From Candidatus Zambryskiibacteriota bacterium (GTDB lineage: Bacteria; Patescibacteriota; Minisyncoccia; Phycocordibacterales; DATDWN01), in the NCBI GenBank assembly GCA_026394775.1, contig JAPLZY010000008.1, positions 1 to 51,366 of the forward strand: a stretch of DNA of 51,366 bases, written 5' to 3'. This document shows, piece by piece, positions 19,520 to 38,466 of this stretch. The notes beneath the pieces are model-generated. The model worked only from the letters and a program-made list of their open reading frames with translations, did not search any database and was not told where the DNA came from. Positions within the stretch are counted from its first letter, which is position 1. Each line of letters starts with the position of its first letter. Made by a program: the position numbers and the translations under genes.

Positions 19520-20128
19520 ATGATATTGACGGTTGACCTTCGTCCTGATTGGAAAGAGCTTCATATGCTTACGGCAATTAAAGCGGGTACCCGTACCTCG
19601 TGTTTAAAACGAGGTGTTGGGGCTGTTTTAGTAAGAAATAAAAGAGAGATTGTGTCAGGGTACAATGGGGCTCCTTCCGGAATGGAAAATTGTCTTATTG
19701 ATTTAAAGGAATGTTTTTATGAACGTCTCGCATGGGAAGATAGTCAAAAAGGTCACGGGCCTTTTGAGTTATTAAAAGAAGCTCGGAAAATATTCTGTAT
19801 TGCACGGCATGCTGAGGCGAATGCGATTCAGCAGTGTCTCGATACAGGAGTCTCTCCAAAGGCGGCTACATTATTTGTCACCAACTTTCCGTGTCCTCGA
19901 TGTGTCATTGAGTACATTATCCCAAATAAATTAGCGGGAGTTATTGTATGGAAAGACTACTTAGCAAATCCATTACTCACTGAAGATGAGCTCACAATGA
20001 GCGTGAGACTTCTCCGGGGTGCAAAGGTATCTGTAGAAAAAATGGATTTCCCTGAGAAGCGAATTCGGGAAATCATGGAGATGCATTTTTCGGTCGGAGA
20101 TAAAACAAAATATGTTTTTCAACCCTAG
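19520..20128 (+). CDS. deoxycytidylate (dCMP) deaminase, DCTD/T4-like long form
   Basis: RPDWKELHM...A..AGTRTSC, GYNGAPSG, and the zinc ligands HAEANAI and PCPRC. AAGGAG lies 8 nt upstream of the ATG. Confidence 0.85.
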   Translation: MILTVDLRPDWKELHMLTAIKAGTRTSCLKRGVGAVLVRNKREIVSGYNGAPSGMENCLIDLKECFYERLAWEDSQKGHGPFELLKEARKIFCIARHAEANAIQQCLDTGVSPKAATLFVTNFPCPRCVIEYIIPNKLAGVIVWKDYLANPLLTEDELTMSVRLLRGAKVSVEKMDFPEKRIREIMEMHFSVGDKTKYVFQP

Positions 20129-20131
20129 TGA

Positions 20132-20164
20132 CTGGGTGGCTTCACTGCCACCTGGTTATTTTTT
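20132..20164 (+). terminator. intrinsic terminator after the dCMP deaminase gene
   Basis: CTGGGTGGC-ttcact-GCCACCTGG (core GGTGGC/GCCACC) followed by TTATTTTTT. Confidence 0.5.
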
Positions 20165-20197
20165 ATATATCTGATAGGATGGTTTTTAGAGGTGAGT

Positions 20198-20764
20198 ATG
20201 AAAATTGGTCTTGATTTTGACGGAGTCATTGCTGACTCCCTTGCAGCAAAAGTTACTGCTGCACGTGAAATGTTTGCGGTTTCAATTCCTCCAGACCTTT
20301 GTGAGCGTAAGCTCATTATGCAACATCAGTTGCTTACTGAGGAACAGTATGATGAGGTGAATAGGAGGGTATTCAGTGGGCGTGGAGTTGCCATTGAGGA
20401 AATACATCAAGCCTGTCTGTACATTCAAATCTTGCAGGCGCATCGGTATAATATTCGAGTTGTGACGAGCAGATCCAACTCTGATCGTACTCTGGCGTGT
20501 GCGTTAGAGTGGCTTCGGGTAAAAAACCAAACTTTAAAAGTTTCTGGTGTTGGATACAAAAAATCCAAGGTCGATGCGTGTCGCGGGCTTGATGTTTTTG
20601 TTGATGATGATTTAGAAAAGCTCGTACCTCTCGTTGGTACGGTGAACCATTTGCTTCTTTTTTCATCGCCAACCAATCGAGACCATGAAATGCCATCAGG
20701 TATTCATCGTGTAGACAATTGGTGGGAACTTTACAACTATATCCGGGAAGGAGGATTTCGATGA
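20198..20764 (+). CDS. HAD-superfamily 5'(3')-deoxyribonucleotidase-like (NT5C-type) protein
   Basis: MKIGLDFDGVIADS carries the HAD motif I DxDGV at the extreme N-terminus, and VFVDDD is a motif IV candidate. The track start 20192 is a GTG two codons upstream. Confidence 0.6.
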   Translation: MKIGLDFDGVIADSLAAKVTAAREMFAVSIPPDLCERKLIMQHQLLTEEQYDEVNRRVFSGRGVAIEEIHQACLYIQILQAHRYNIRVVTSRSNSDRTLACALEWLRVKNQTLKVSGVGYKKSKVDACRGLDVFVDDDLEKLVPLVGTVNHLLLFSSPTNRDHEMPSGIHRVDNWWELYNYIREGGFR

Positions 20765-21393
20765 TTGACATTATTCACTACCAAGTGTTGCCTGAAGGAG
20801 AGTTTCTTGCTCGCCTTAAGGAGACTCGTCTCAAAGGTTTTGGGCAACCACTTGTATATAAGAACAGTGCTTTGGTTATCAAGGAGCAGGTTAATCCTGA
20901 TGTCTTGGTGCCAGCTCAACTGTATGTACTCAAAGGGCAGGTGAAAATTGTTCTAGACCTTGCGGATGCTTTCGAGCATCGAGGTGTGAATGTTTTCGCA
21001 CTGACTGGCGCTTTGCTCTTTTGGTTGGGTGGGTCCGATCCTGATAAGGATCCTCCTATTCCGTTTCTCCCGCCGGTGATTGAGGAATCTCGTGAGCCAG
21101 ATGGGCGAGTAGTTCAACTCATAAACGACGGTATGCATCGGATCGCCGCCGCTCGCCGGTTAGGAAGGAACATCAACATCGTCCATATTTCTAATGTTCC
21201 TCAAGAGTATCCTTACTATGCATATGCACTGGAAGGAGGTTTTTCTCAGGTTACAGAAATCGATGAAATCACCGAAGGTTTCAAAAAGAAAAACTATCGA
21301 GACCCTGAGAACTATAAAGCTCTTTTTCGGGTTTTCACTGGAGTCTTTCCTGGAGTTCAGGCAGACCGGCCACCGATTCGTGCAAAAGTATAA
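20761..21393 (+). CDS. ParB N-terminal/sulfiredoxin-like domain protein, function unknown
   Basis: VVQLINDGMHRIAAARRLG matches the ParB-like DGxHR...A....G box. ATG 20761 overlaps the upstream stop (ATGA) and is preceded by GGAAGGAGGA. The track start 20719 is less likely. Confidence 0.55.
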   Translation: MIDIIHYQVLPEGEFLARLKETRLKGFGQPLVYKNSALVIKEQVNPDVLVPAQLYVLKGQVKIVLDLADAFEHRGVNVFALTGALLFWLGGSDPDKDPPIPFLPPVIEESREPDGRVVQLINDGMHRIAAARRLGRNINIVHISNVPQEYPYYAYALEGGFSQVTEIDEITEGFKKKNYRDPENYKALFRVFTGVFPGVQADRPPIRAKV

Positions 21394-21488: not shown

Positions 21489-22985
21489 ATGCGCTTTGAA
21501 GCGTTGTATTACAAAGAACGACTGACTGTGATCAATCCTTCAGGAGATGTTGCGGTTGTTACACTTTGGTCACTAACGGATTCTGCGGTTAAGATTTTAG
21601 AAGCGGCAGGTATTGATCTGACACCTGAGACTTCACGGGTGGCTGTAATTAGCAACCTGTACGGCAATGGTTTACCTCATATGCTCCGGGCTCTTCTATG
21701 GAACCCACAAATTCAGCATATCGTGGTATTTGGTTCAAACCTATCTGGCTCAAAGGAATGGTTAGTTAATTTCTTTGAGCACGGATTGGAAAATTTTGAA
21801 TTCTTGGGTTCTCCGGCATTTCGTATTCGAAATACTGATCGGGTGATTGATGGAGAGGTACAATTAAGTTATTTTTTGCATCCTCCTTCGATCACTACGT
21901 TTGGAAAACTTACTGATTCAGAAACACAGTCATGTTTGCAAGAATTTTTTGCAGGCTTGCCGGGCTTTGTAGAGAGAAAATTCGAAAGAGTTGCACCTCC
22001 ACAAGTCCCTGAACCTCAGGTGACACGATTTCCATCAGACCCATCGGCTCATATGATTGTACGCGGGACACCAATGGAAGCATGGGCGGAACTCGTATTT
22101 CGTTTGTATCGGTTTGGGTATCGCAATAAAGTAGCAAAGAAAGGAGCGCTCGAAGAACGTGTAGAGCTTCTCGACATGAAAGTTGTAATCAATAATCCTG
22201 TTGAGGAATCTGCTGAAATTCTTGGGCAATATGGATTTGAATTGGAGAAGTTTCGCGGTTACCAGCTGCGAATCCTTGATCCAGTTAAGCCACACGGACT
22301 CCAGTATTCCTACGGTAATCTCTTAAGGGGACACTTTCAGTATCAAGGTGAGATAGTTGATTCGTTGGCTGTGGTTGCTCGGAGGTTGAAAGTTGATCCA
22401 CATTCTCGACATGAATATGTTGCCTTGTGGGACAATGGACCTCATTTGGTTACCGGTCGAGGATGTCCGTGTTTTGTCTCTGCTTTCTTTCGATTTTTTG
22501 AAGGGAAGTTACATATGACTGCGACTTTCCGTACTCACAACGCGATGGATGCGTGGCCGGAGAATTTATACGGACTCATCGCCATTTTACGTTTTGTTGC
22601 GGAACATGCCGGTATGGAAACTGGCTCAATCACCGTGTTCAGTCATTCGATCAGTATTGATCCTTCTGCTCTCGAAAAAGCAAAAAAAATTGCAGAAGGA
22701 AAAAAGACGGATGATATCGTCAATCCTGAGACTGCTAAGGTTGAGCTTCGGCTTGATCCAGGTGGGGAGTATACAGTCACTTTTGATTCGGAAACTTTTG
22801 AACTTGTAGTTGAGCATTCGTTTGGTGGCATGAAGCTTGGTGAGTATCGTGGAAAAACAGCAGAGCAAATTGAACAACAGCTTGCTTGTGATGGTTCGAT
22901 CTTGCTTATCTCTCATGCTTTGTATGTTGGACGGCAGCTTGCTCGCAAAGAAATAGAAATGAAAGCTGCACGCTTAAAAAAGTAG
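21489..22985 (+). CDS. thymidylate-synthase-superfamily protein fused to an N-terminal MtrA-like domain and a C-terminal extension
   Basis: The core GRGCPCFVSAFFRFFEGKLHMTATFRTHNAMDAWPENLYGLIAI...GSITVFSHSISID is colinear with the ThyA active-site region (PC, GKL, R-x-x-D/N, P-x-N). The N-terminus reads GDVAVVTLWS...NLYGNG...NPQIQHIVVFGSNLSG. AAGGAG lies 7 nt upstream of the ATG. Confidence 0.6.
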   Translation: MRFEALYYKERLTVINPSGDVAVVTLWSLTDSAVKILEAAGIDLTPETSRVAVISNLYGNGLPHMLRALLWNPQIQHIVVFGSNLSGSKEWLVNFFEHGLENFEFLGSPAFRIRNTDRVIDGEVQLSYFLHPPSITTFGKLTDSETQSCLQEFFAGLPGFVERKFERVAPPQVPEPQVTRFPSDPSAHMIVRGTPMEAWAELVFRLYRFGYRNKVAKKGALEERVELLDMKVVINNPVEESAEILGQYGFELEKFRGYQLRILDPVKPHGLQYSYGNLLRGHFQYQGEIVDSLAVVARRLKVDPHSRHEYVALWDNGPHLVTGRGCPCFVSAFFRFFEGKLHMTATFRTHNAMDAWPENLYGLIAILRFVAEHAGMETGSITVFSHSISIDPSALEKAKKIAEGKKTDDIVNPETAKVELRLDPGGEYTVTFDSETFELVVEHSFGGMKLGEYRGKTAEQIEQQLACDGSILLISHALYVGRQLARKEIEMKAARLKK

Positions 22986-23000: not shown

Positions 23001-23036
23001 AGAGCCTCGTGGTAGCACCATGGGGCTCTTTTTTTA
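23001..23036 (+). terminator. intrinsic terminator
   Basis: AGAGCCTC-13 nt-GGGGCTCT followed by T7. It lies inside the 5' extension of the track argS ORF, which argues for the ATG at 23063. Confidence 0.6.
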
Positions 23037-23062
23037 TGCCTAAAAAATGCTATTATGACCTC

Positions 23063-24754
23063 ATGACTCTCCAAAATACAATCAAACAGTGGATTGCTAC
23101 TACTCTCTCTATCGACGACGATGTGACTTTGGAATACCCGGGGGATGCCTCTCACGGGGATTTTGCTACCAATATCGCCCTTATCTACGCAAAGCAGTCG
23201 GGGAAAAACCCACGAGAACTTGCTGATGAATTTGTAACCAAGCTTAATGCGGTATTAGAACATTTTGATTTCTTTGAAAGTATTACAGTAGCAGGTCCCG
23301 GCTTTATCAACTTTAAACTCAGGCCAAAAGTTTTTAGTGCGGTAGTGGAGAAAATAAATACATCGGGTGAAAAATTTGGAAACCATACGAGACTTTCAGG
23401 GCAGCGGGTTGTAGTCGAGTACACACAACCAAATCCGTTTAAAGAATTTCATATCGGGCACCTCATGAATAATATTATCGGCGAGTCGATCTCTCGACTT
23501 TTTGAGGCACATGGTACAGAGGTTATACGTTCGACATATCATGGAGATGTGGGATTGCACGTAGCAAAAGCTATTTGGGGGCTTCAGAGTATGGAAGTAG
23601 GGACTCTTGTAAACGCACAGGTTTTGGGAAAAGCATATGCAACAGGAGCAAAACTTTTTGAAACAAATGAAGATGTAAAAAAAGAAATTGTCGCACTCAA
23701 CAAACTTATCTACGATCGGTCAGACCCTGATGTAAATGCGCTCTATGATGTGGGAAGAGAAGTGTCTCTCCGATACTTCGAAGATTTATATAAACGCCTT
23801 GGAAGTGAGTTTGATTTTCATTTTTATGAAAGCGAAACAGCGCCTATTGGTAAAGCGCTTGTGGAGGAATATCTCGAAACAGGAGTGTTTGAAAAAAGTG
23901 AGGGCGCGGTGATCTATCGAGGTGAGAAGTTTGGCCTGCACAGTAGAGTGTTTTTGACATCTGAAAATCTCTCAACATATGAAGCAAAAGAGCTTGGCTG
24001 TATCGCTCTAAAAAAAGAAAAAATCGGAGAGTTTGATATGTCGGTGACTATTACTGCAAATGAACAAAATGCTTTTTTTACAGTGGTTGAAAAAGCGGCT
24101 GAAGAAGTATTTCCTGACCTTTCTGCAAGACTCCTTCATCTCTCGCACGGCATGATGAAGTTGCCGACAGGGAAAATGTCTTCTCGTACAGGGGACGTTA
24201 TTACTGCTGAAGCTATGATTGAAACAGTAAAAGATGCTGCTCGAATGAAAATTAAAGAAGGTGTACTTTCTCATGCGCAGCGAGAAGATATTGCAGAGAA
24301 GGTGGCGCTCGCTGCATTGCGTTTTGCTGTACTTCGGCAATCAATCGGTGGGGATATTATTTTTGATGTAAACAAAGCACTTTCTCTTGAAGGGGATTCT
24401 GGTCCTTACTTGCAATATGCTTCGGTGCGAGCGTCTACGCTTATTAAAAAAGCAGATGGAATCATTGAGGCTTCGTCTGTGTTGCCGGCGGATTGGGAGA
24501 CTACTCATATCGAACGCTTGCTCCAGCGGTATCCGCGTATCATCGACCGTGCGGGGCGAGAGTATGCTCCGCATTATCTCGTAACATACCTCACTGAGCT
24601 TGCAGGAGCTTTCAATTCATTTTATGCGTCACATAAGATTATTGACGCTTCTGACGCTACCTCTGCTTATCGTCTTTCAATCACAAAAGCGTTTGTGGAT
24701 GTGATGACATCTGGATTACACATGTTAGGTATTGAAATTCCAAGTGAAATGTAA
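23063..24754 (+). CDS. argS: arginyl-tRNA synthetase
   Basis: EYTQPNPFKEFHIGHLMNN (HIGH motif), a central MSSRTG motif and a C-terminal DALR-type anticodon-binding domain. Confidence 0.95.
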   Translation: MTLQNTIKQWIATTLSIDDDVTLEYPGDASHGDFATNIALIYAKQSGKNPRELADEFVTKLNAVLEHFDFFESITVAGPGFINFKLRPKVFSAVVEKINTSGEKFGNHTRLSGQRVVVEYTQPNPFKEFHIGHLMNNIIGESISRLFEAHGTEVIRSTYHGDVGLHVAKAIWGLQSMEVGTLVNAQVLGKAYATGAKLFETNEDVKKEIVALNKLIYDRSDPDVNALYDVGREVSLRYFEDLYKRLGSEFDFHFYESETAPIGKALVEEYLETGVFEKSEGAVIYRGEKFGLHSRVFLTSENLSTYEAKELGCIALKKEKIGEFDMSVTITANEQNAFFTVVEKAAEEVFPDLSARLLHLSHGMMKLPTGKMSSRTGDVITAEAMIETVKDAARMKIKEGVLSHAQREDIAEKVALAALRFAVLRQSIGGDIIFDVNKALSLEGDSGPYLQYASVRASTLIKKADGIIEASSVLPADWETTHIERLLQRYPRIIDRAGREYAPHYLVTYLTELAGAFNSFYASHKIIDASDATSAYRLSITKAFVDVMTSGLHMLGIEIPSEM

Positions 24755-24839
24755 TTTTGATGGTCCCCATCTAAGATGAATACGATTCTTTATAAAAAGG
24801 AGTGAAAATGATAGTATGGGCTAATAAGAACATAACAGA

Positions 24840-27800
24840 ATGGCAGAAGAGAAAGACAAACAACTAAAAAGCGAAACTGCATTACGAGAAGAAGCGATTC
24901 TCGATTTTTGGCAAAAAGAAAAAATCTTTGAAAAGACACTTGAAAAGGAGTCACCTCAAGGGGAGTATGTATTTTACGAAGGTCCTCCGACTGCCAATGC
25001 AAAGCCTGCACTTCATCACCTTGAAGCACGAGCGTTTAAGGATATTATTCCGCGTTTTAAAACAATGCAGGGTTTTCATGTAGAGCGTAAAGGAGGGTGG
25101 GATACTCATGGTCTTCCAGTGGAACTGCAGATAGAAAAAAAGCTTGGCCTAAAGTCAAAAAAAGATATTGAAAGCTACGGCATCGAAGCCTTCAACAAAC
25201 AATGTAAAGACAGTGTGTTTGAATATATTGGTGATTGGGAAAAATTTACTGACCGTATTGGATATTGGGTGGACAAAAAGAATGCGTATTTTACGTTCAA
25301 TCCAGGGTACATGGAGTCAGTGTGGAATATAGTAAAGACCGTAGATGAAAAGAAACTTCTCTACAAAGACTACAAGGTGCTTCCGTGGTGTCCGCGTTGT
25401 GGAACTGCGCTTTCAAGTCACGAGCTCGCTCAAGGTTATGAGGAGGATAAAGATCTCTCGGTAACAGCAAAGTTTAAGATCGTCGGTGAAGACAATACCT
25501 ATCTTTTAGCATGGACTACAACCCCGTGGACACTACCAGGGAATGTTGCTTTGGCTGTAGGGAAGGATATTGAATATGTGAAAATTAAAGTCAGTGACGA
25601 ATATTTAATTCTTGCAAAATCAAGAGTTTCTGTTGTACCGACTGAGTATGTAGTAGTGGCTGAAATTAAGGGTGTTAACCTTGTAGGTTTAGAATACGAA
25701 CCTCTTTTCCCGTACCTCACCGATAAATTTACAGACAAAAACCCAGAAGCGTTTGAGAAAGCATACAAAGTATATGCTGCGGATTTTGTGAACACGACAG
25801 ATGGAACAGGGACTGTACACACTGCAGTCATGTACGGACAAGACGATTTTGAACTAGGGACTCAGGTAGGTCTTCCTAAATTCCACCTTGTAAAAGAAGA
25901 CGGACACTTTTTGGATGATATGCCTCTCCATTTAGGAGATAGTAAAAAAGATCTTTCGGGGCGCTATGTAAAAGAAGTAGATGAAAAAGGGAAGCCGACT
26001 GTAGCTGTGGATATTATTGACGATCTTAAAAAAAGAAATTTGTTTTTCAGTCAGGAAAACATAAAACACTCATACCCGCATTGTTGGCGATGTAAAACAG
26101 CACTTATCTACTATGCGCGTGACTCGTGGTATATCCGCATGTCTTCTCTTCGAAAAGAACTCATGGCAGAAAATGAAGATATTCACTGGGAACCAAAACA
26201 TATAAAAGAAGGTCGCTTTGGTGAGTGGCTCCGAGAGATCAAAGACTGGGCTATTTCTCGTGAGCGATACTGGGGTACACCGTTACCTATCTGGACCAAT
26301 TCACAAGGAGACTATCGGGTAGTTGGGAGTGTTGACGAACTTCGAAAGCTCACGAAAAAATCTGGTAACAGGTATTTTGTGATGCGCCACGGACAAACAG
26401 AAGGAAATGTAAAACAAATTTGGAGTACAGATAGTGAATTCCTTGATCCGTTGACCGAAAAAGGGCGAGAGCAGGTACACGCATCGGCACAAAAGATAAC
26501 AGAAAAAATAGATCTTATCGTCGCATCACCGTTTCCACGCACACAAGAGACTGCACGATTGACTGCGGAGATTCTCGGTATACCGGAAGACCAGATTGTC
26601 ACTGATCCGCATATTGGAGAATGGAATGTTGGCACAGAGTTTAATGGAAAAGGTATCGAAGATTTTTTTGCAATTAGAAACAAAGGTACAAACCGATTTA
26701 CGTTTAAAACAGGAGACGGAGAGTCGTATGCAGATGTGTGTACACGAGCAGGAAAGTTTCTCTATTCACTTGAAGAAAAATATCAAGGAAAAAATATCCT
26801 TATCGTGTCTCATGGTGCTCCATCACGCGCAATGGCTTTTATTGCAGATGGTTTTTCTCATGACAAAGCGCCGTTGCATATGAGGACATTTAAAAACTTT
26901 GACAATGCAGAAGTGCGAGAAATTAATTTTGTACCGCTTCCGCATAATCAAAATTATGAAATCGATTTGCATCGACCGTATATCGACGAAGCGGTACTTA
27001 TTGATGAAAAAGGTGAGTCACTAACTCGTGTAAAAGAAGTGATGGATGTGTGGTTTGACTCGGGTTCTATGCCTTTTGCTCAGGTCAATTATCCTTTTGC
27101 GCAGGAAGATTTGCTCTACCCAGCTGACTTTATTTCAGAAGCTATCGACCAGACTCGAGGATGGTTCTACACTTTGCATGCTATCGGCGTGCTGATGGGT
27201 AAAGGCAAGGCATATAAAAACGTAATATGTCTCGGACATATTCTCGACGCCGAAGGAAAGAAGATGTCTAAATCAATTGGAAATATTGTAAATCCAAATG
27301 AGATGATGGATCTCTATGGTGTTGATGCACTCCGTCTGTGGATGTATAGCGTCAATCAACCAGGAGATTCAAAGAACTTTGATGTGTCGACCGTAGATGA
27401 AATAATCAAAAAGGTATTCAACCCAACTCGAAATATTTTGGCATTTTATGAGCTCTATGCAGACGATGAGTCTAAAGCGTTTAAGGGGCAATCATCACAT
27501 GTGCTTGACCGATGGATTGTAGGTGAGCTTCATATGCTTATACGCGAGGGAACAAAGTCGCTCGAACAATATCAGATATTTGAAGCTGCTCGACGTATCA
27601 GAGATTTTATCAATGATTTTTCTACATGGTATGTGAGACGTTCACGCGATCGTTTTAAGTCTGACAATATACAAGAAAAAAATGAAGCACTTGCAACCAC
27701 TCGCTTTGTTCTTGTTGAACTGATGAAGTATATGGCGCCGTTTACTCCATTTTTTGCTGAGGATATTTACCGCACACTCAAGACTTCTTCTGATCCAGAA

Positions 27801-28319
27801 AGTGTTCATTTGACTACTTGGCCTACTGCAGAGGCTGTGGACGAAACACTTCTCGCTGATATGCGTAAAGTTCGAGAGGTGGTTTCAATTGCACTTCAGG
27901 TGCGTTCAAAAGCAAATATAAAAGTACGACAACCACTCGCATCTTTGGTTATACAGGAAGATCTTAGTGACGAGCTTCGGGCAATTATTGCAGATGAGGT
28001 AAATGTAAAAGAGGTTGTTTCTGATACAACTATGATAATAGCGCTTGAGCTTGATACGGCACTCACACCCGACCTGATCGAAGAGGGAATCGCTCGAGAT
28101 ATTATCCGAGCTATTCAAGATGCCCGTAAGAAAGAAAATCTTACACCAAATCAAACAATTACACTCTCACTTTCAGGGATCGGATCTGAATTTTTGAATC
28201 GTTGGGGCGAGATGATACAAAAACCGACAGGAGTTAAAAGTGTAGAAATTGTGGACACAAAAGGTGCGCACACAGTCGAACTCGAAACGCTATCTATTTC
28301 GTTTACACTCGGGTATTAA
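24840..28319 (+). CDS. ileS: isoleucyl-tRNA synthetase (type 2) with an inserted histidine-phosphatase domain
   Basis: FYEGPPTANAKPALHH, the editing-domain motif TTTPWTLPGN, RYWGTPLPIW, DLHRPYID, VWFDSGSMP and KMSKS (GKKMSKSIGN). At 1159 aa it is long because of the insertion at 26361-26963. Confidence 0.95.
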   Translation: MAEEKDKQLKSETALREEAILDFWQKEKIFEKTLEKESPQGEYVFYEGPPTANAKPALHHLEARAFKDIIPRFKTMQGFHVERKGGWDTHGLPVELQIEKKLGLKSKKDIESYGIEAFNKQCKDSVFEYIGDWEKFTDRIGYWVDKKNAYFTFNPGYMESVWNIVKTVDEKKLLYKDYKVLPWCPRCGTALSSHELAQGYEEDKDLSVTAKFKIVGEDNTYLLAWTTTPWTLPGNVALAVGKDIEYVKIKVSDEYLILAKSRVSVVPTEYVVVAEIKGVNLVGLEYEPLFPYLTDKFTDKNPEAFEKAYKVYAADFVNTTDGTGTVHTAVMYGQDDFELGTQVGLPKFHLVKEDGHFLDDMPLHLGDSKKDLSGRYVKEVDEKGKPTVAVDIIDDLKKRNLFFSQENIKHSYPHCWRCKTALIYYARDSWYIRMSSLRKELMAENEDIHWEPKHIKEGRFGEWLREIKDWAISRERYWGTPLPIWTNSQGDYRVVGSVDELRKLTKKSGNRYFVMRHGQTEGNVKQIWSTDSEFLDPLTEKGREQVHASAQKITEKIDLIVASPFPRTQETARLTAEILGIPEDQIVTDPHIGEWNVGTEFNGKGIEDFFAIRNKGTNRFTFKTGDGESYADVCTRAGKFLYSLEEKYQGKNILIVSHGAPSRAMAFIADGFSHDKAPLHMRTFKNFDNAEVREINFVPLPHNQNYEIDLHRPYIDEAVLIDEKGESLTRVKEVMDVWFDSGSMPFAQVNYPFAQEDLLYPADFISEAIDQTRGWFYTLHAIGVLMGKGKAYKNVICLGHILDAEGKKMSKSIGNIVNPNEMMDLYGVDALRLWMYSVNQPGDSKNFDVSTVDEIIKKVFNPTRNILAFYELYADDESKAFKGQSSHVLDRWIVGELHMLIREGTKSLEQYQIFEAARRIRDFINDFSTWYVRRSRDRFKSDNIQEKNEALATTRFVLVELMKYMAPFTPFFAEDIYRTLKTSSDPESVHLTTWPTAEAVDETLLADMRKVREVVSIALQVRSKANIKVRQPLASLVIQEDLSDELRAIIADEVNVKEVVSDTTMIIALELDTALTPDLIEEGIARDIIRAIQDARKKENLTPNQTITLSLSGIGSEFLNRWGEMIQKPTGVKSVEIVDTKGAHTVELETLSISFTLGY
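26361..26963 (+). other. in-frame histidine phosphatase (phosphoglycerate-mutase superfamily) domain inserted into IleRS
   Basis: FVMRHGQTEGN (RHG at 26385-26393), LTEKGREQ, SPFPRTQETA, GDGESY and ILIVSHGAP (His codon 26811-26813). It lies between the IleRS segments ...PLPIW...ELRKL... and DLHRPYID. No stop or frame change at either junction. Confidence 0.8.
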
Positions 28320-28328
28320 CTCTCTGCT

Positions 28329-28907
28329 ATGGCTCACTATATGTACACGACGGATGCGCTTATAGTCAAACGTATTCCGTATGACACCAATGTTTCGTAT
28401 TTACTTTATACCAAAGAACTTGGTCTTATTAGTGCTCTTGCAACAGGGGTTCGAAAAAGTGAATCAAAACTCAGATATGGTTTGCAAGAGTATTCTTTTT
28501 CGCAGGTATCTTTGGTTAAAGGTAGGCATGTGTGGCGTCTGACAGGTGTTAACTTGCGGACAAATTTCTATTTTGACACAGAGTCAAACAAGGCCAAACA
28601 TGTCATCGCTCGTATATGTGCACAGATAGTGCGTCTTGTTGCAGGGGAAGAAAAAGATGAACAGCTTTTTTCTGTTATAACACAAGGGCTCGACGCGCTT
28701 TCGAAGACGACAGAAGAGGATGTGGCTTTACTTGAAATACTTTTGTTACTTCGGATACTGTATAAACTCGGGTATGTGTCGGCGACAGAGTTGGAAATGT
28801 TTGTGGGGAATGATGAATATACTAAAGATATGTTAGAAAAAGTGCGTACCTCGCAGGCATCTTTGCTTGCCCATGTAAACAGAGGACTGAAAGAAAGCCA
28901 ATTGTAA
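28329..28907 (+). CDS. recO: DNA repair protein RecO (short form)
   Basis: N-terminal OB-fold pattern: TDALIVKRIPYDTNVSYLLYTKELGLISALATGVRKSESKLR...L. The length and helical C-terminus fit compact RecO proteins. Confidence 0.6.
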   Translation: MAHYMYTTDALIVKRIPYDTNVSYLLYTKELGLISALATGVRKSESKLRYGLQEYSFSQVSLVKGRHVWRLTGVNLRTNFYFDTESNKAKHVIARICAQIVRLVAGEEKDEQLFSVITQGLDALSKTTEEDVALLEILLLLRILYKLGYVSATELEMFVGNDEYTKDMLEKVRTSQASLLAHVNRGLKESQL

Positions 28908-28908
28908 A

Positions 28909-29028
28909 AATACGAATATACGAATAATGCACAACTACGAATGAATTCATCCTGATCCGATACGTTCGTATCGAACGGATTTAGGATTCGTAGCTATTCG
29001 TAAGTTTTCCATTCGAATATTCGTATAT
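28909..29028. repeat. TACGAA/TTCGTA-rich palindromic intercistronic element, copy 2 (divergent full length)
   Basis: Begins AATACGAATATACGAATAA and ends CATTCGAATATTCGTATAT. Has a central hairpin around GATCCGATACG/CGTATCGAACGGAT. Lies between recO and the next gene. Confidence 0.6.
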
Positions 29029-29056
29029 CTATTTAAGATAATGTTATAATGAATCC

Positions 29057-30934
29057 ATGAATATGGAAAATGATAAAATAGAACAGCTAAAAAGAAAACT
29101 GTATTCTCGTGGAGGTTTTACACCGAAAACATCTCGTTTTCAAATGAGCCGAGAGGACTCAAATGTAAAAGATAATTGGGAAGGAAATACAGAGCTTCAT
29201 TTAAATGCAGAGAGTGGGGGCACACACCCTTTTCTAAAAAAGTTTCTTATCGGAGCTGTACTTTTTTTTGTAGTTGCTCTAGGGCTGGCGGCATATGTGT
29301 TTACCGGTGGTATGAATGAAGTTTCTTCTGCTAATGTTGATATCGGGATCCTTGGTCCAGCGAGTGTTGCGTCAGGTGAGCAAGTTGACCTTGGGATATC
29401 AATTGTAAATAAAAATTCTACACGGCTTGAAAATGTTGTGCTTTCTATAGAATATCCAGAAGGAACAAAACAAAATGAAAATGATGCAGAGCCTTTGAAG
29501 CGAACGAGTGAAAACATGGGTCAGATAGATAAAGGCTCGGTGCGTGACAGCACAGCCAAATTTATCTTGTTTGGGGACAAGGGTGTGGTTAAAACGCTCA
29601 CCTTTAAAATCGAGTATACGGTGACTGGCTCAAATGCGCGATTCACCAAGGAGAAAAAATACGATGTAATGATCGGCTCTTCTCCGTTGCTTGTAAACGT
29701 AAGCGCACCACAAGAGATCAACTCCGGACAACTTTTCGGACTTCAGGTTACCGTCACGTCAAATTCAGGCGCGCTTCTTAAAGACGTGCTCGTAAAAGTA
29801 GAGTACCCATATGGTTTTACCTATGTAGACTCTTCTCTTGAACCGGAGCGAGATAAGCAGACATGGAATATTGGCGATTTAAAAAATGGCGAGAAAAAAG
29901 TCTTTACCGTACAAGGAAAAATTGTGGCGCAGGATAATGAAGAAAGAACATTTCGATTTGTCGTCGGGACACTTGCCTTAGGAGGAGAGGTGGACACAGT
30001 ACTCGGTACAGCCATGCCGACACTTCTGGTAAGAAAGCCTTTTTTCAATGCAGATTTTGTCTTGGCTGGTGAAAGCTCTGAGATTGTGAGCGTGAGTCCA
30101 CGGAGCCGTATATCAGGAGCGATTACGATCACCAACTCACTCGCCGATGCACTTTCAAATGTATCAGTTGAGGTAAAAATGTCTGGTTCTGCATTAAATA
30201 AAACAGGAGTGCGGGTCAACGATGGTGGCTTCTACCAGTCAAACCAAAATACAATCGTATGGGATAGAAATTCAAGACAAAATCTGGAAATTATTCGGCC
30301 AGGAGAAAAAGTGGGAGTAAATTTTGATTTAGATAATTTCATTGTCTCAAATACAGATAAAAACCCAGAAGTTTCTTTTGATGTTACTTTGAAGGGTGTA
30401 CGTGCTCTCTCTGGTGGTGGGGTAGACAATGTTACATCTACATTTACTAAAAAACTTCGCTTCCTCACAGGACTTTCTTTAGGGGCAAAAACACTTCGCA
30501 GTGGAGTGATCTCAAACATTGGTCCAGTACCACCACAGAGAGAAGTTTCTTCTACATATACAGTAGAGTGGACACTTTCAAATACAAACAATGATGCAGG
30601 TAATACTCAGGTAACAACCGTACTTCCTGTGTATGTAGAATGGACTGGTGCGGTCTCACCTACAACAGAAAGTATTAGTTACAATCCTGATACACGTACG
30701 GTCACATGGAATGCAGGTACGATACCTGCTCGTGCAGGCTACAGCACATCGCCAAAGAAAGTATTTTTTCAGGTAAAGCTTAACCCAAGCGCTTCTCAAG
30801 TAGGCATAGCCCCGGCTTTGACGGGAACTATCAGTACGTTTGCTAAAGATATGTTTGCGGATAAGACATTTACTGTAGAAACAAATGCTGTGACCTCCAA
30901 CACTTCCGACGGCTTTTCGGGCACAGTTCAGTAA
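29057..30934 (+). CDS. large membrane-anchored protein with repeated beta-sandwich-like regions, function unknown
   Basis: A cytoplasmic N-terminus of about 60 aa, one transmembrane helix (FLIGAVLFFVVALGLAAYVF), then about 540 aa of beta-rich sequence. Confidence 0.6.
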   Translation: MNMENDKIEQLKRKLYSRGGFTPKTSRFQMSREDSNVKDNWEGNTELHLNAESGGTHPFLKKFLIGAVLFFVVALGLAAYVFTGGMNEVSSANVDIGILGPASVASGEQVDLGISIVNKNSTRLENVVLSIEYPEGTKQNENDAEPLKRTSENMGQIDKGSVRDSTAKFILFGDKGVVKTLTFKIEYTVTGSNARFTKEKKYDVMIGSSPLLVNVSAPQEINSGQLFGLQVTVTSNSGALLKDVLVKVEYPYGFTYVDSSLEPERDKQTWNIGDLKNGEKKVFTVQGKIVAQDNEERTFRFVVGTLALGGEVDTVLGTAMPTLLVRKPFFNADFVLAGESSEIVSVSPRSRISGAITITNSLADALSNVSVEVKMSGSALNKTGVRVNDGGFYQSNQNTIVWDRNSRQNLEIIRPGEKVGVNFDLDNFIVSNTDKNPEVSFDVTLKGVRALSGGGVDNVTSTFTKKLRFLTGLSLGAKTLRSGVISNIGPVPPQREVSSTYTVEWTLSNTNNDAGNTQVTTVLPVYVEWTGAVSPTTESISYNPDTRTVTWNAGTIPARAGYSTSPKKVFFQVKLNPSASQVGIAPALTGTISTFAKDMFADKTFTVETNAVTSNTSDGFSGTVQ

Positions 30935-30973
30935 AGTTGATTGTCGAGACTATTTAATATACTATTTGAAATC

Positions 30974-32362
30974 ATGGCAGAAAAAAACCAAGAACTGATG
31001 GAAAAGATTGTATCCCTCTGTAAAAGACGAGGGTTTGTTTTTCCTGGGTCTGAAATCTACGGAGGACTCGCCGGTACATTTGACTATGGACCGCTTGGTG
31101 TTGCGCTCCGCAACAATATAAAAGCGCTTTGGTGGAAACGCTTTGTAACTGACCGAGAAGACATGTACGGCATGGATGCCGCTATTTTGATGAATCAAAA
31201 TGCATGGAAAGCATCGGGACACGTGGGTGGTTTCAACGATCCACTTGTTGAAGATTTGAAAACTAAAAAAAGATATCGAGCAGATCATTTGCTTGAAGAT
31301 GTAGGAGTTGACGTAAAAGGCCTTACTGTGGGAGGTATGGATAGTTTGATAAAAGAAAAGGGAATCAAAAGTCCAGAAGGAAATCCGCTTGGTGATGTGC
31401 GTCAGTTTAATATGATGTTTAAAACTCACTTTGGTGCCACCGAAGGTGAGGACTCTATCACATATCTTCGTCCTGAAACGGCTGGAGGTATGTTTGTAAA
31501 CTTTAAAAATATTCAAGACTCATTTCATCCAAAACTTCCATTTGGTATGGCACAGATCGGTAAAGCGTTCCGCAATGAAATCGCACCTCGAGATTTTATT
31601 TTCCGTCTCCGTGAACTCGAACAAATGGAAATCGAATATTTTGTTGATCCAAGAGACCCAGTGAAAGTAGATCAAATATTCAACGAATGGTTTGATGAAC
31701 AAGTGGCCTTTTTGAAAGATCTTGGCCTTCCAGAATCAAAGATCCATAAACTCGAAGTTCCTGAAGCTGACCGAGCTCACTACTCAAAGAGAAGTGTTGA
31801 TACAGAGTTTGATTTTGCCATCGGTCAGAAAGAACTTCTTGGTCTGGCATATCGTACAGACTTTGATCTCAATGCGCACGCAAGTGCTTCTGGGGCTGAT
31901 CTTTCATACTATGACGAAGAAACAAAGGAGAGAGTAGTACCTCACTGCATCGAGCCTACATTTGGTGTGGACCGAGTATTGCTCGCAGTCCTCTCATCAG
32001 CATATACAGAAGATGAACTAGGGGGAGAGACACGAACATACCTAAAATTTGCTCCAAAGGTTGCTCCGGTAATAGTGGCAGTTTCTCCACTTTTGAAAAA
32101 CAAACCAGAGCTTGTATCTCTCGCACGAGAAGTGTTTGTGCAACTCAAGAAAAAATTTGGCCGCGTAAGCTTCGATGACAATGGAAATATTGGAAAGCGA
32201 TACCGAAGACAAGATGAGATAGGTACGAAATGGTGTGTAGTGATTGATTTCGATACACTCGAGCAAAAAACAGGAGTAACAGTACGTGACCGAGATACTG
32301 GAGAGCAAACACGCATGCAGGTCCCAGAACTCATTGCGTACATCGAAGAAAAGTTACAGTAA
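30974..32362 (+). CDS. glyQS: glycyl-tRNA synthetase (homodimeric class II type)
   Basis: MEKIVSLCKRRGFVFPGSEIYGGLAGTFDYGPLG, with class II motifs FRNEIAPRDFIFRLREL and a C-terminal anticodon-binding domain. ATG 30974 is preferred over the track start 30941. Confidence 0.95.
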   Translation: MAEKNQELMEKIVSLCKRRGFVFPGSEIYGGLAGTFDYGPLGVALRNNIKALWWKRFVTDREDMYGMDAAILMNQNAWKASGHVGGFNDPLVEDLKTKKRYRADHLLEDVGVDVKGLTVGGMDSLIKEKGIKSPEGNPLGDVRQFNMMFKTHFGATEGEDSITYLRPETAGGMFVNFKNIQDSFHPKLPFGMAQIGKAFRNEIAPRDFIFRLRELEQMEIEYFVDPRDPVKVDQIFNEWFDEQVAFLKDLGLPESKIHKLEVPEADRAHYSKRSVDTEFDFAIGQKELLGLAYRTDFDLNAHASASGADLSYYDEETKERVVPHCIEPTFGVDRVLLAVLSSAYTEDELGGETRTYLKFAPKVAPVIVAVSPLLKNKPELVSLAREVFVQLKKKFGRVSFDDNGNIGKRYRRQDEIGTKWCVVIDFDTLEQKTGVTVRDRDTGEQTRMQVPELIAYIEEKLQ

Positions 32363-32390
32363 ATTTTCAATTTTAAATATTCATAGAAAT

Positions 32391-33092
32391 ATGGAAAATG
32401 ATGAAGATGTGGAAAATAGAGCGAAGGAATTTATAAAGCAAAATAAATCCCACATTATACAAAAGTTTGCAAACAATGCATCTCATATACCTGTAGCAAA
32501 GCCCATTTCTCTCTTCATGGCAGGTTCGCCTGGAGCAGGGAAAACCGAAGTTTCAAGAAGTTTGATAAAAGAATTTGAAAGCATGCCTATACTTATTGAT
32601 GCTGATGAAATTAGAAAAGAATGCCCAGGTTACATTGGTATAAACGCGCATCTCTTTCAAAAAGCCGCAACAAAAGGAATAAGTATTTTATTGGATCACG
32701 CGCTTGATAATAAATTAAACTTTATTCTTGATGGTACGTTTGCATATGCAGATCCAGTTCAAAATATTCAAAGATCAATCGACCACGACAGGTTGGTTGA
32801 ATTATGGTTTATCTATCAAAGACCGGAGCTCGCTTGGGAATTTACAAAAGCTCGAGAAGTGATTGAATCAAGAAGAGTGGGTAAAGAAAAATTTATTGAA
32901 ACATTCTTGAAATCAAGAGACAATGCAATTCAAGCAAAAAGACACTTTGATAAAGTTCTAGAATTAAACTTGTTGATCAAAGATATCGATAATACAGGAG
33001 GAGAGCTCAGATTAAATATATCCGCCGACGAACTTGACCGGTATCTAGGGAATGGCTATACTGAAGATGAACTTAAAAATCTACTCAAATGA
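32391..33092 (+). CDS. zeta-toxin-family P-loop kinase
   Basis: FMAGSPGAGKTEVS (Walker A) followed by ILIDADEIRKECPGY and ILDGTFAY, which is the zeta_toxin family layout. ATG 32391 is preferred because the track start 32286 overlaps glyQS. Confidence 0.7.
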   Translation: MENDEDVENRAKEFIKQNKSHIIQKFANNASHIPVAKPISLFMAGSPGAGKTEVSRSLIKEFESMPILIDADEIRKECPGYIGINAHLFQKAATKGISILLDHALDNKLNFILDGTFAYADPVQNIQRSIDHDRLVELWFIYQRPELAWEFTKAREVIESRRVGKEKFIETFLKSRDNAIQAKRHFDKVLELNLLIKDIDNTGGELRLNISADELDRYLGNGYTEDELKNLLK

Positions 33093-33277
33093 TTACAACA
33101 TTAAAGAAGCTATTTACTCGAAAAAGCCCTGAAATTAAAGAAAAGAATGACTTTTCTGAGTTTTTTTTGCATGCCAAATCAAAAGATAAAGCTAAGGTAA
33201 TTCGACGAGTGCTTAAGGAAGCAAGTGATGAACAGAGGGCTTTAATGAAAAAATATAGAGAAGCAAAAACCGCCTAA
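33089..33277 (+). CDS. small Lys/Glu-rich helical protein, translationally coupled to the zeta-like gene
   Basis: The ATGA overlap at 33089-33092 couples it to the upstream stop. 62 aa with no recognised motif. Confidence 0.45.
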   Translation: MITTLKKLFTRKSPEIKEKNDFSEFFLHAKSKDKAKVIRRVLKEASDEQRALMKKYREAKTA

Positions 33278-33402
33278 TGGGGGGGTTTTGGTGCTAAGGC
33301 TTTGCCACGGCAGAAAGTGCCCTCAATAAGGGCTTTCTCTGCTGTGGCGAAAGCTAAATAAAAAACAGCATAAGGGCACGATGTGCCAAGGAGATGAAGA
33401 CG

Positions 33403-34044
33403 ATGTCTTCACTTTACACGATTGGACAGATGTATGAATTAGCGACCGCTTTTGAACAAGATGGTTATACGCCAGAAATGCTCAAGAGTCTTGTGTCAGG
33501 GGGTCGACTGCGAGCTCTCAAAGGAGTGCTCGAAGGGAACGCTCAGATTGTCACCACCTCAACCAGGGTGGCGCAAAAGAAGGTTGAACCGAAGAGTTTC
33601 ATCATCAAACGTGGCGATTTTAACCCTGCCGAATTTATTGGAACAGGCTGGAGCATCATCATGAAGGAGACAGACGCGCGTTCCACTGCTCTTATTGAAC
33701 TGGATCTGAACAAGATCCAACAGGTTACGATGTTGAAAGAAGGCGAGTTGTCCATCAAAGGTGAAGAGAAACTCAAACGTCTGAAGGAGTCGGAAAACAT
33801 CCGTTTGGATGCCGATATCTTCCTTGCACTCTGGAGGAACCAATATCTCATCCCTGAAAGCTGGAAGCAAAAGGTGGACGGGAATACTCGCTACATTTTC
33901 TTTGACGGCACAGTCCTTCGGGACTCAGTCGGCTACCGCTATGTCCTGTACTTGTGCTGGTTCGGCGGTGCGTGGTACTGGCGCGTGCGCTGGCTCGACC
34001 TTGTCTGGGGCGCCGACGGCCCGTCTGCTGTTCTCGTAAGTTAG
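33403..34044 (+). CDS. DGR target (variable) protein with C-terminal variable region
   Basis: The C-terminus GYRYVLYLCWFGGAWYWRVRWLDLVWGADGPSAVLVS is encoded by the VR. The AAGGAG at 33388-33393 is correctly spaced for ATG 33403. The track start 33394 abuts the SD. Confidence 0.85.
   Translation: MSSLYTIGQMYELATAFEQDGYTPEMLKSLVSGGRLRALKGVLEGNAQIVTTSTRVAQKKVEPKSFIIKRGDFNPAEFIGTGWSIIMKETDARSTALIELDLNKIQQVTMLKEGELSIKGEEKLKRLKESENIRLDADIFLALWRNQYLIPESWKQKVDGNTRYIFFDGTVLRDSVGYRYVLYLCWFGGAWYWRVRWLDLVWGADGPSAVLVS
33914..34036 (+). repeat. DGR variable repeat (VR)
   Basis: 123 bp aligned base by base to 34374-34496 at a constant offset of 460. There are 22 mismatches, and every one lies opposite a TR adenine. 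Confidence 0.9.
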
Positions 34045-34094
34045 TACTTGGGCTTTGGTCACTTGGATCTTTTGATCCTTGGATTTTAGCTCTT

Positions 34095-34121
34095 AATCCG
34101 GCGCCTTGGCGCCGGATTTTT
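34095..34121 (+). terminator. GC-rich hairpin/terminator downstream of VR
   Basis: AATCCGGCGCC-tt-GGCGCCGGATT (11-bp perfect stem) followed by TTT. Confidence 0.65.
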
Positions 34122-34278
34122 CTATACAAAAAATTAAGATATACTGAAGGGTGGTTGTAGGTGAATATCGGTACACATTTACGGATGGGTGCCACCGAAT
34201 CCAGTATCCATGCATTGAGAATATTTTAGACTACGGTTTCAAATAGAGTGGTGCATGTAGACACTTCAAAAAATGAAG

Positions 34279-34307
34279 TTACTTGGTATAAAGTGTTACG
34301 GTATTAT
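34279..34307 (+). promoter_or_regulatory. candidate promoter for the TR transcript (TTACTT-N17-TATTAT)
   Basis: Same -10 hexamer and spacing as the secE and rplK promoters. It lies about 65 nt upstream of the TR. Confidence 0.3.
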
Positions 34308-34373
34308 GATACCGAATAAAATACAGTCTCAAAATTTTTCAAGGGACAGTGGTACAGAAAGCACTTTATACAT

Positions 34374-34496
34374 TCCTTCGGAACTCAGACGACAACCGCT
34401 ATGTCCTGTACTTGTACTGGAACGACGGTGCGTGGAACTGGAACGTGAACTGGCTCGACAATGACTGGAACGCCAACAACCCATCTGCTGTTCTCG
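34374..34496 (+). repeat. DGR template repeat (TR)
   Basis: Adenine-rich with AAC codons. It is the invariant partner of the VR. Track ORF 34349..34591 across it is not considered coding. Confidence 0.9.
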
Positions 34497-34523
34497 CAAC
34501 TCGCTTAATTTCTCTCCCAACTT

Positions 34524-34853
34524 TCAGTTCGGAGAGTTTTGTTTTACAAGCTGGCCATACCAGCCACCAAGCTGTTTTCCTGCTTCGGTGAGAGGTTCTG
34601 AAAGTGCAATATATTTTTTCGTATCAAGGGCTTTGATTTCCCAGAGCATATAGAGGAGGAATTTTGCAGTATCGAGTGAGATGATGGCTTTTTTCACAAA
34701 TGGCTGTTTCTCCTGTTTTTCAAGAAAACTTGCAACGAGGATACTTTCAATAGCTTGAATGAAGTATTTATCTATTGTTTGAGCTAAAGTGTAACGGGAA
34801 GTTTTGGGGAATGTGGAGGTATAGCTTTGCCAGAGTATGTAGACACTTTTCAT
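34524..34853 (-). CDS. avd: DGR accessory variability determinant (Avd; four-helix-bundle / 23S-IVS-protein family)
   Basis: SVYILWQSYTSTFPKTSRYTLAQTIDKYFIQAIESIL...LDTAKFLLYMLWEIKALDTKKY..L...L.EAGKQLGGW matches the Avd/IVS four-helix-bundle pattern. ATG at 34853; the track start 34862 is a TTG. Confidence 0.8.
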   Translation of the reverse strand: MKSVYILWQSYTSTFPKTSRYTLAQTIDKYFIQAIESILVASFLEKQEKQPFVKKAIISLDTAKFLLYMLWEIKALDTKKYIALSEPLTEAGKQLGGWYGQLVKQNSPN

Positions 34854-34878
34854 TTTTTCCAATACAGGGAGCAGTTTC

Positions 34879-34887
34879 GGGGGGGGG
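34879..34887. repeat. G9 homopolymer in the avd/RT divergent promoter region
   Basis: Counted directly: the GG at the end of gcagtttcGG followed by GGGGGGG before cat. Confidence 0.9.
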
Positions 34888-38460: not shown

Positions 38461-38466
38461 CTGTAT

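Follow-up and report, generated by a model that had tools for sequence, protein, structure and literature searches.

A 51,366-nucleotide stretch of DNA from a Candidatus Zambryskiibacteriota bacterium (GCA_026394775.1, contig JAPLZY010000008.1, positions 1-51,366 of the forward strand; hereafter the window) encodes an isoleucyl-tRNA synthetase (IleRS) that houses a complete second enzyme domain, a histidine phosphatase (HP), within its catalytic core. That a complete HP is nested in a complete IleRS is, as a statement of anatomy alone, practically beyond doubt. The reading that we favor, to which we assign a probability of roughly 0.6, is that HP is a catalytically active phosphatase, as predicted from its conserved residues, and that its activity would be functionally coupled to the class Ia synthetase that carries it. 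The coordinates of the gene, its motifs, and its neighbors are collected in Table 1.

The ileS reading frame is continuous across the insert, with neither a stop codon nor a frameshift, and the GC content over both junctions is even (0.39-0.45) with no break in composition, in agreement with the initial annotation of this DNA. The encoded protein matches the NCBIfam model TIGR00392 (ileS) with 879 bits against a cut-off of 621.4, the match being split in two at about residue 513, and Pfam recognizes tRNA-synt_1, Anticodon_1, and DUF5915, with His_Phos_1 interrupting tRNA-synt_1. Among solved structures, the closest are P. megaterium IleRS2 (8c8w, 771 bits) and T. thermophilus IleRS (1ile, 738 bits), whereas IleRS1 enzymes reach only about 300 bits. 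Judged by its sequence, the window synthetase is a type-2 IleRS of the A/GXHH subgroup. The full-length AlphaFold2 model (predicted local distance difference test, pLDDT, 87.3; predicted template modeling score, pTM, 0.79) superposes on IleRS2 and on yeast IleRS (Foldseek, E 1.7e-86), and a Foldseek search with the whole protein returned IleRS structures only.

The synthetase motifs on both sides of the insert, which had been called intact, are so, and what had been described as a HIGH-like region is the non-canonical ALHH, a HIGH-type signature in which the first and third positions are exchanged. Relatives of the window protein carry ALHH, GIHH, or GVHH as well as the canonical HYGH. The A/GXHH signature has been demonstrated to be functional in IleRS2; D. 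radiodurans IleRS2 shares the ALHH form and has a millimolar Ki for mupirocin, and the A/GXHH form has been linked to hyper-resistance (PMC10485003). The editing domain bears the signatures WTTTPWT and GTGxVHxA...D, and in a 74-sequence alignment most positions of WTTTPWTLPGN and GTGTVHTAVMYGQDD are invariant or at least 90% conserved; the KMSKS loop is likewise in place.

The insert lies between WGTPLPIW, which ends at residue 485, and DVWFDSG (residues 736-742), at the tip of the zinc-knuckle hairpin. In the alignment to 8c8w, residues 503 and 703 of the window protein correspond to chain residues 476 and 481, and when residues 508-702 are removed in silico, the remainder aligns without a gap at the junction to residues 406-582 of T. 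thermophilus IleRS (E 7.7e-57), the junction then reading ...VGSVDELRKLTKK followed by NQNYEIDLHRPYID... The segment PLP...HRPY is native IleRS sequence that is also found in Thermus, and the insert proper is therefore bounded at S508 and V698. Alignment to the Thermus and Priestia enzymes thus defines an insertion whose start is the one first annotated, but whose end is not: of the span originally given, 26361-26963, the true end is 26933, and the former last residue, 708, takes in about ten residues of native linker (PLPHNQNYEI). DLHRPYID falls within residues 699-716, and all of the motifs quoted for the synthetase and the phosphatase were found where they had been placed.

The hairpin that receives the insert has the zinc-binding pattern CxxC...CxC in Thermus and CxxC...CxxC in Priestia. 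All four cysteines are replaced in the window IleRS, which has TNSQGD (26295-26312) and IDEKGE (27000-27017) at these positions and so lacks the CxxC...CxxC knuckle, a feature that does not define IleRS generally. Loss of the zinc cysteines is seen in 38 of 50 fused IleRSs, versus their retention in 44-45 of 45 uninserted IleRSs that have a free-standing HP gene upstream. We take this hairpin to be the counterpart of connective peptide 3 (CP3) of class Ia enzymes, on a residue mapping that we presume, and the strand that follows the insert (DVW) presumably carries the tryptophan of the isoleucine pocket, W518 in Thermus, by alignment with the Thermus enzyme. The name CP3 has been applied to IleRS (PMC11685878). 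Linker residues N510, Y512, F697, P701, H702, and N703 are nearly invariant in fused sequences, and P701, D709, H711, and P713 are invariant in alignments of fused IleRSs; this conservation, together with the high pTM, suggests that the attachment of HP is fixed and not floppy.

The inserted domain itself is readily recognized. Pfam His_Phos_1 (PF00300) matches residues 513-696 over profile positions 2-180 of 194, with an E-value of 2.6e-29 and 102.7 bits against a cut-off of 21.7, and the isolated domain scores 107.8 bits (E 7.1e-31), which bears out the original claim of a complete histidine phosphatase placed in frame within an otherwise intact IleRS. The family motifs are RHG (residues 516-518), SPFPRT (563-568), GDGESY (625-630), and IVSHGAP (655-661), and the catalytic histidines and arginines that had been reported correspond to R516, H517, R567, and H658. 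E594 is probably the catalytic glutamate, equivalent to the Glu of the RLRE motif in PhoE-type enzymes and in the free-standing family. HP is modeled with confidence on its own (pLDDT 94.2, pTM 0.91) as well as in the context of the full-length protein.

Foldseek comparison of the HP model gave matches with a probability of 1.00, template modeling (TM) scores of 0.70-0.79, root-mean-square deviations of 2.4-3.2 Å, and 22-25% identity. The nearest folds are iPSP1 (TM 0.79), mycobacterial GpgP, TIGAR, CobC, Rv3214, a riboflavin-pathway phosphatase, and PhoE, phosphomonoesterases of ~200 residues with small-molecule substrates; comparison of sequences with solved proteins ranks PhoE/YhfR (E 6e-11), the H. 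thermophilus phosphoserine phosphatase iPSP1, and CobC closest. HP has its fold in common with PhoE/YhfR (1ebb, 1h2e), iPSP1 (4ij5/4ij6), CobC (6nru, 6e4b), GpgP Rv2419c (4pz9), and TIGAR, and shares with the small branch-1 phosphatases a length of about 190-210 residues and the RHG...R...E...H catalytic set. Unlike these free-standing enzymes, it is nested in a synthetase, and it is only 22-25% identical to them.

Assignment of HP to a more specific family was tried and rejected. Models for cofactor-dependent phosphoglycerate mutases (dPGM) all score below their cut-offs (dPGM_arch, 64 versus 225 bits; GpmB, 43 versus 261; pgm_1, 16.5 versus 81.7), and such mutases are about 230-250 residues long with a C-terminal tail, whereas HP has 191 residues and re-enters IleRS right after its last strand. 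CobC (62.2 versus 162.9 bits), PspA (52.3 versus 350), and SixA (28.1 versus 74.5) are likewise below cut-off. HP is a member of branch 1 of the histidine phosphatase superfamily, of the generic phosphatase type and outside every characterized subfamily.

Table 1 Features of the IleRS-phosphatase gene and of its surroundings in the window (residue numbers refer to the IleRS protein)
Feature	Coordinates	Strand	Basis or remarks
ileS, type-2 isoleucyl-tRNA synthetase with inserted phosphatase	24840..28319	+	1159 aa plus stop; open reading frame, TIGR00392
Class I signature, non-canonical ALHH (aa 57-60)	25008..25019	+	Motif inspection
CP1 editing-domain core motifs, WTTTPWTLPGN (aa 225-235) and GTGTVHTAVMYGQDD (aa 322-336)	25512..25847	+	Intact
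IleRS segment before insert: WAISRERYWGTPLPIW, first half-knuckle TNSQGD, then VGSVDELRKLTKK	26247..26360	+	Alignment to 1ile, 8c8w
Inserted branch-1 histidine phosphatase (HP) domain, aa 508-698, 191 aa	26361..26933	+	PF00300, domain model, Foldseek
R516-H517-G518, phosphate-binding Arg and predicted nucleophilic His	26385..26393	+	R and H 100%, G 99% (193 fused sequences)
R567, second phosphate-binding Arg (SPFPRT)	26538..26540	+	Invariant
E594, predicted general acid (D-x-R/H-L/I-G-E motif)	26619..26621	+	99% conserved
H658, second catalytic His (SHG)	26811..26813	+	Invariant
IleRS after insert: PLPHNQNYEIDLHRPYID, second half-knuckle IDEKGE, DVWFDSG	26934..27065	+	T. thermophilus alignment (DVWYDSG there)
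KMSKS loop (aa 808-812)	27261..27275	+	Motif, alignment
argS (ArgRS, 581 aa), conserved upstream neighbor; with ileS, first two of four clustered synthetase genes	23009..24754	+	tRNA-synt_1d, DALR_1, Arg_tRNA_synt_N
recO-like gene, conserved downstream neighbor	28329..28907	+	Pfam RecO_N, RecO_C
Class II synthetase with HGTP_anticodon	30941..32362		
Short MetRS-like class I enzyme, 475 aa	38467..39894		
Reverse transcriptase, 328 aa	34932..35918	+	Pfam RVT_1, E 9e-22; among housekeeping genes
498-aa protein, partial thymidylate-synthase match (aa 271-399) and C-terminal PterinBD-DUF4346	21489..22985	+	

To determine how widely the fusion occurs, one genome per GTDB species was scanned and the best 80 loci were retained. 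All 80 span flank, insert, and flank in a single frame at 49-85% identity, and their organism labels are of the Parcubacteria/Paceibacteria type (Nomura-, Zambryski-, and Taylorbacteria, Minisyncoccia), with several labeled Saccharibacteria, probably loosely. Similarly, PF00133 and PF00300 occur together in 120 of the 120 best full-length homologues (1108-1184 residues, 57-83% identity) from NCBI, JGI, ENA, and Logan. A search with the insert only against 1.84 billion representative proteins returned 603 clusters at E<=1e-10, and among the best 141 of these (representatives at 50% identity) 86 are IleRSs, or fragments of IleRS, with HP. The survey of Candidate Phyla Radiation (CPR) synthetases that the initial annotation proposed therefore shows the insertion to be widespread.

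This recurrence bears on the trivial explanation of the gene as a chimeric assembly, a frameshift, or an intein or other mobile element absent from the mature protein. Some database entries are indeed fragmented or frameshifted within HP on long contigs, and H702-N703 resembles the C-terminal HN of inteins. However, no fewer than 80 species-level genomes and no fewer than 120 protein clusters, originating from independent projects, share the in-frame architecture, and its recurrence in many independent assemblies excludes misassembly, the concern for which read mapping across the junctions had been suggested; a frameshift or chimera is ruled out by the same recurrence and by the even composition. 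As for an intein or mobile element, the insert has a complete HP fold and no HINT fold, the junctions show no Cys/Ser nucleophile pattern, and H702-N703 precedes Q/E and lies in native IleRS linker. An artefact of any of these kinds is, in our view, vanishingly improbable. Separately, several IleRS-HP genes on contigs of 26-122 kb (P0013, P0019, P0042, P0062, P0038) are called as pieces that are broken or frameshifted within HP; such calls may stem from sequencing errors, from pseudogenes, or from genes that are truly split.

Within the fusion, the phosphatase is maintained. Across 193 fused sequences no substitution occurs at R516, H517, N523, S563, R567, or H658, and conservation reaches 99% at G518 and E594 and at least 98% at E628 and R636; the catalytic residues that might have proved variable in orthologues are thus invariant or 99% conserved. 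The substrate cap (residues 595-627) is the least conserved region of the same alignment, and HP as a whole has a pairwise identity of only 42%, versus about 70% for the Rossmann core. The ratio of nonsynonymous to synonymous substitution rates (dN/dS) of the insert in the closest pairs (Nei-Gojobori) is 0.05-0.2, near or somewhat above that of the core, although dS is near saturation and the values are rough. The catalytic set is kept in nearly all of 186 HP domains of every architecture, with R and H present in each alignable copy; the exceptions are E->A in one valyl-tRNA synthetase (ValRS) copy and an occasional E->D or N->Q/I/H/A. A degenerate enzyme or pseudo-enzyme is ruled out by the invariant catalytic residues and the low dN/dS.

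HP also exists as a gene of its own. Its closest free-standing relatives (P0053, P0054, P0072, P0094, P0116) are Patescibacteria proteins of 187-221 residues that are about 33-39% identical to it, and in all five examined the gene lies directly upstream of ileS, following argS in four of them. In one such locus (L081), argS (580 aa), hp (189 aa), and an uninserted ileS (977 aa) are separated by gaps of only 2 and 3 nt. A metagenome scan with this free-standing subfamily (alignment of six sequences) yielded 80 loci at 43-100% identity. Here argS is upstream of hp in all 72 assessable loci, and the uninserted ileS starts at most about 120 nt after hp in 58 of 71 informative loci, with a further 10 having ileS within 3 kb and 3 lacking it in at least 1.5 kb. 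Around ten of the 71 (L101, L109, L111, L124, L135, L140, L141, L147, L156, L159) have 0.7-2.8 kb of extra genes between hp and ileS, and in L086 the intervening gene encodes a PaaX_M-like protein of 179 residues.

The window has the order argS, ileS::hp, recO, and a gene for a DUF11 protein, with recO similarly downstream in L086 and in many loci with free-standing hp, and the window contains no second ileS and no second phosphatase. Fused loci (n=80) contain exactly one HP region each, with none upstream. Given the argS-hp-ileS adjacency and the absence of an upstream HP in fused loci, one small phosphatase occurs in two states, encoded in close packing beside ileS or forming a domain within IleRS. 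A further free-standing form was observed, comprising tandem two-domain phosphatases of 405-432 residues in which both halves are catalytically intact (P0315, P0324, P0327, P0334, P0337, P0340, P0349, P0363, P0364, P0374, P0377).

The association extends to additional copies, to a second site, and to a second synthetase. Two IleRSs (P0296, P0279) have two HP copies in the same loop, and three others of 1379-1419 residues (P0262, P0306, P0345) have one loop HP and a second at about window residues 875-887, the junction of the catalytic body to the anticodon-binding domain. In Peregrinibacteria and Gracilibacteria, HP is found in ValRS (P0358, P0382-P0495), with one to four copies in 73 of 121 top clusters; the site, about 18 residues past WGxPxP and about 18 before DxWFSS, is the homologous loop, and some of these ValRSs carry a further copy upstream of WGxPxP. 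One Nomurabacteria-labeled ValRS cluster of the same list is without HP. In neighbor-joining trees of IleRS and of the HP domain, 44 of 54 fused IleRSs fall in one clade, and a few fused or tandem forms interleave with uninserted ones. An aberrant IleRS-like protein of 1066 residues (P0350) has an IS200/RAYT-like tyrosine transposase domain (residues 326-472), HP (680-854), and a C-terminal GNAT domain; most of the IleRS C-terminus is missing, and the gene may be decayed or chimeric.

We consider the association between HP and these synthetases to be selected because of the argS-hp-ileS order, the repeated insertions and copies, and the ValRS parallel in another CPR class. An alternative is chance capture, in which a housekeeping phosphatase encoded upstream of ileS was copied into a tolerant loop, so that the fusion would mean co-expression only or, in an extreme form, HP would now be mainly a structural stand-in for the zinc knuckle. 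With the donor gene directly upstream of ileS, local capture is mechanistically easy; the disappearance of the zinc cysteines hints at a structural role; and CPR proteins tolerate large insertions, one relative even having a transposase-like domain. Capture of a neighbor does not account as readily for insertions that arose independently at another IleRS site and in ValRS, with no donor gene seen beside valS in two uninserted loci, nor for up to four HP copies or the high conservation of linker residues N510, P701, H702, and N703, and the retention of catalytic residues in essentially every copy speaks against a purely structural role. We regard chance capture as unlikely. Conservation of the gene order, repeated insertion, and the parallel in ValRS also make it less likely that a moonlighting activity, as suggested at first, was preserved through a chance fusion.

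The reading that we favor is thus one bifunctional polypeptide, comprising a working type-2 IleRS and a compact branch-1 HP set in the zinc-knuckle hairpin, the presumed CP3-equivalent loop. By the standard chemistry of the family, H517 would attack a phosphomonoester to form a phospho-histidine intermediate, with the phosphate held by R516, R567, and H658 and with E594 acting as the acid/base. The module may represent a small phosphatase family specific to Patescibacteria and dedicated to class Ia synthetases as partner: in sister lineages it is a separate gene of 187-221 codons between argS and ileS, in the lineage of the window it would have been internalized in IleRS, often in replacement of the zinc site, and in Peregrinibacteria and Gracilibacteria it occupies the same loop of ValRS. 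HP most likely dephosphorylates a small compound or a nucleotide-like end tied to the aminoacylation cycle, candidates being a phosphorylated nucleotide that would compete for the ATP/adenylate site or a tRNA 3' end bearing a phosphate.

More specific functions can be weighed against these data, although no single substrate is, in our estimate, probable by itself. HP may clear nucleotides or by-products near the ATP/adenylate site (3'-phosphorylated adenosine nucleotides, alarmone-type compounds, or AMP), relieving inhibition or tuning activity. Small phosphomonoesters are the substrates of the nearest relatives of HP, one example being the nucleotide-like alpha-ribazole-5'-P (CobC), PhoE has a broad substrate range, and the insertion hairpin runs straight into the DVW strand that presumably bears the Trp of the isoleucine pocket. 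However, these observations single out no particular compound, a diffusible substrate gives no evident need for tethering, for multiple copies, or for the restriction to IleRS and ValRS, and an indiscriminate nucleotide phosphatase beside an ATP site would be costly. We hold this function as a tentative possibility.

Alternatively, HP may heal tRNA 3' ends, or confer immunity, by stripping from A76 a 3'(2')-phosphate or a pyrophosphate that a nuclease has left behind or a RelA/SpoT-type toxin has attached, and so allow recharging by the IleRS, or in other CPR lineages the ValRS, that carries it. The E. coli CCA-adding enzyme contains, in its HD domain, a phosphatase that serves in repair of the 3' end. 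A preprint describes toxins whose pyrophosphorylation of the tRNA CCA end blocks charging (bioRxiv 10.1101/2021.04.30.441581). HP is tethered only to tRNA-charging enzymes (IleRS, ValRS, and the argS-ileS slot), occupying several sites and reaching four copies, and its variable cap and invariant core would fit a substrate presented by the synthetase. With regard to charge, free-standing HP is basic (mean pI 8.8), in keeping with healing, whereas fused HP is slightly acidic, which is not, and the difference is not decisive for RNA binding. Against healing, all close fold neighbors are metabolite phosphatases, such damage would not single out tRNA-Ile or tRNA-Val, and to our knowledge no member of the histidine phosphatase family acts on RNA ends. 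We therefore consider tRNA healing rather doubtful.

A third option is that HP is a protein phosphatase that reverses an inhibitory phosphorylation of the synthetase, for instance of its KMSKS loop, or of another translation factor. HipA-type kinases phosphorylate GltX and TrpS, and the superfamily contains the protein phosphatases SixA, Sts, and PGAM5; HP has a weak, below-cut-off match to SixA (E 1.6e-6) and in the sequence precedes KMSKS by about 110 residues. Its closest relatives by fold and sequence are, however, not the protein phosphatases of the superfamily, no kinase was seen in the window or in the conserved neighborhood, and we know of no kinase that targets IleRS or ValRS. This option appears improbable, and we rank it below nucleotide clearance, chance capture, and tRNA healing, which follow one another closely in that order.

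Several observations weigh against the favored reading of a functionally coupled, active phosphatase. The upstream argS is retained in only 31 of 75 assessable fused loci, and the argS-hp-ileS order, having been derived from one HP subfamily (43-100% identity), may owe something to common descent. Two uninserted ValRS loci showed no free hp gene beside valS, and the neighbor-joining trees do not settle the number of insertion events, more than one transition being possible. At the level of function, the fold neighbors of HP act on metabolites and not on RNA or protein, and the poorly conserved cap makes one strict small-molecule substrate not obvious.

Compared with known synthetases, the window protein without its insert is collinear with P. 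megaterium IleRS2 (8c8u-8c9d), T. thermophilus IleRS (1ile), and the ALHH enzyme of D. radiodurans, and has the same domain set as type-2 IleRS, including the DUF5915 C-terminal region; it differs in its 191 extra residues at the hairpin tip and in the replacement of the four zinc cysteines. The insertion modules of class Ia synthetases (CP1 editing, CP2/CP3, and the leucine-specific and ZN domains of leucyl-tRNA synthetase) are likewise nested in an intact Rossmann fold. These modules bind or hydrolyze aminoacyl-tRNA or position the KMSKS loop, and unlike HP none is a phosphatase.

Partial precedents are found for each aspect of the fusion. IleRS with an N-acetyltransferase domain (NF040702, ileS_w_GNAT) is a curated precedent for an extra catalytic domain in a bacterial IleRS; the window IleRS does not belong to this family (299 bits versus a cut-off of 1999, no GNAT domain), nor does P0350, which has HP plus GNAT (218 bits). 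The RNase H/acid phosphatase of the Rv2228c/SCO2299 type (NF005567) joins a nucleic-acid enzyme to a CobC-like histidine phosphatase, in a physiological role that is unclear, and is the best NCBIfam phosphatase match of the insert (79 bits, E 3.5e-22), far below its cut-off of 326; that fusion is end-to-end and with another partner enzyme, whereas HP is nested in IleRS. The HD domain of the E. coli CCA-adding enzyme is a phosphatase/phosphodiesterase built into an enzyme of the tRNA 3' end, but has an unrelated, metal-dependent fold and another host.

The full-text literature, with subscription-only papers outside the search, yielded no description of an aminoacyl-tRNA synthetase fused to a histidine phosphatase, and recent IleRS-wide evolutionary studies (including PMC10485003) mention neither a phosphatase nor CPR, in line with the initial annotation, whose author was aware of no such enzyme. 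Fusion sequences have nevertheless been public for years, unremarked and by the thousands, as "isoleucine--tRNA ligase," "class I tRNA ligase family protein" (the PGAP label of many), or "hypothetical protein," with no curated family for the fusion. The IleRS-HP fusion is therefore real, widespread, and apparently undescribed, while synthetases with an extra nested catalytic domain are known as a kind.

Other features of the window were observed in passing. Four aminoacyl-tRNA synthetase genes are located within 17 kb (23009-39894). The reverse transcriptase could be of the retron, diversity-generating retroelement, or group II intron type. The gene with the thymidylate-synthase and PterinBD-DUF4346 regions adjoins genes for a dCMP deaminase, an NT5C-type nucleotidase, and a ParB-CE protein (19520-21393) and with them makes up a small cluster for nucleotide salvage.

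Few enzymes have been studied as intensively as the aminoacyl-tRNA synthetases, whose idiosyncratic insertions usually mark editing, tRNA-handling, or regulatory functions. In much of Patescibacteria, the catalytic core of IleRS accommodates an entire additional enzyme whose class had never been connected with translation, which raises the question of which phosphorylated molecule these ultra-small, host-dependent bacteria must handle at a class Ia synthetase. An answer may bring to light an additional step of quality control or repair during tRNA charging, a defense against tRNA-targeting toxins, or a new form of regulation. If tRNA-end repair were to prove true, HP would raise the number of catalytic sites of a class Ia synthetase to three and would give the histidine phosphatase superfamily its first RNA-end substrate.

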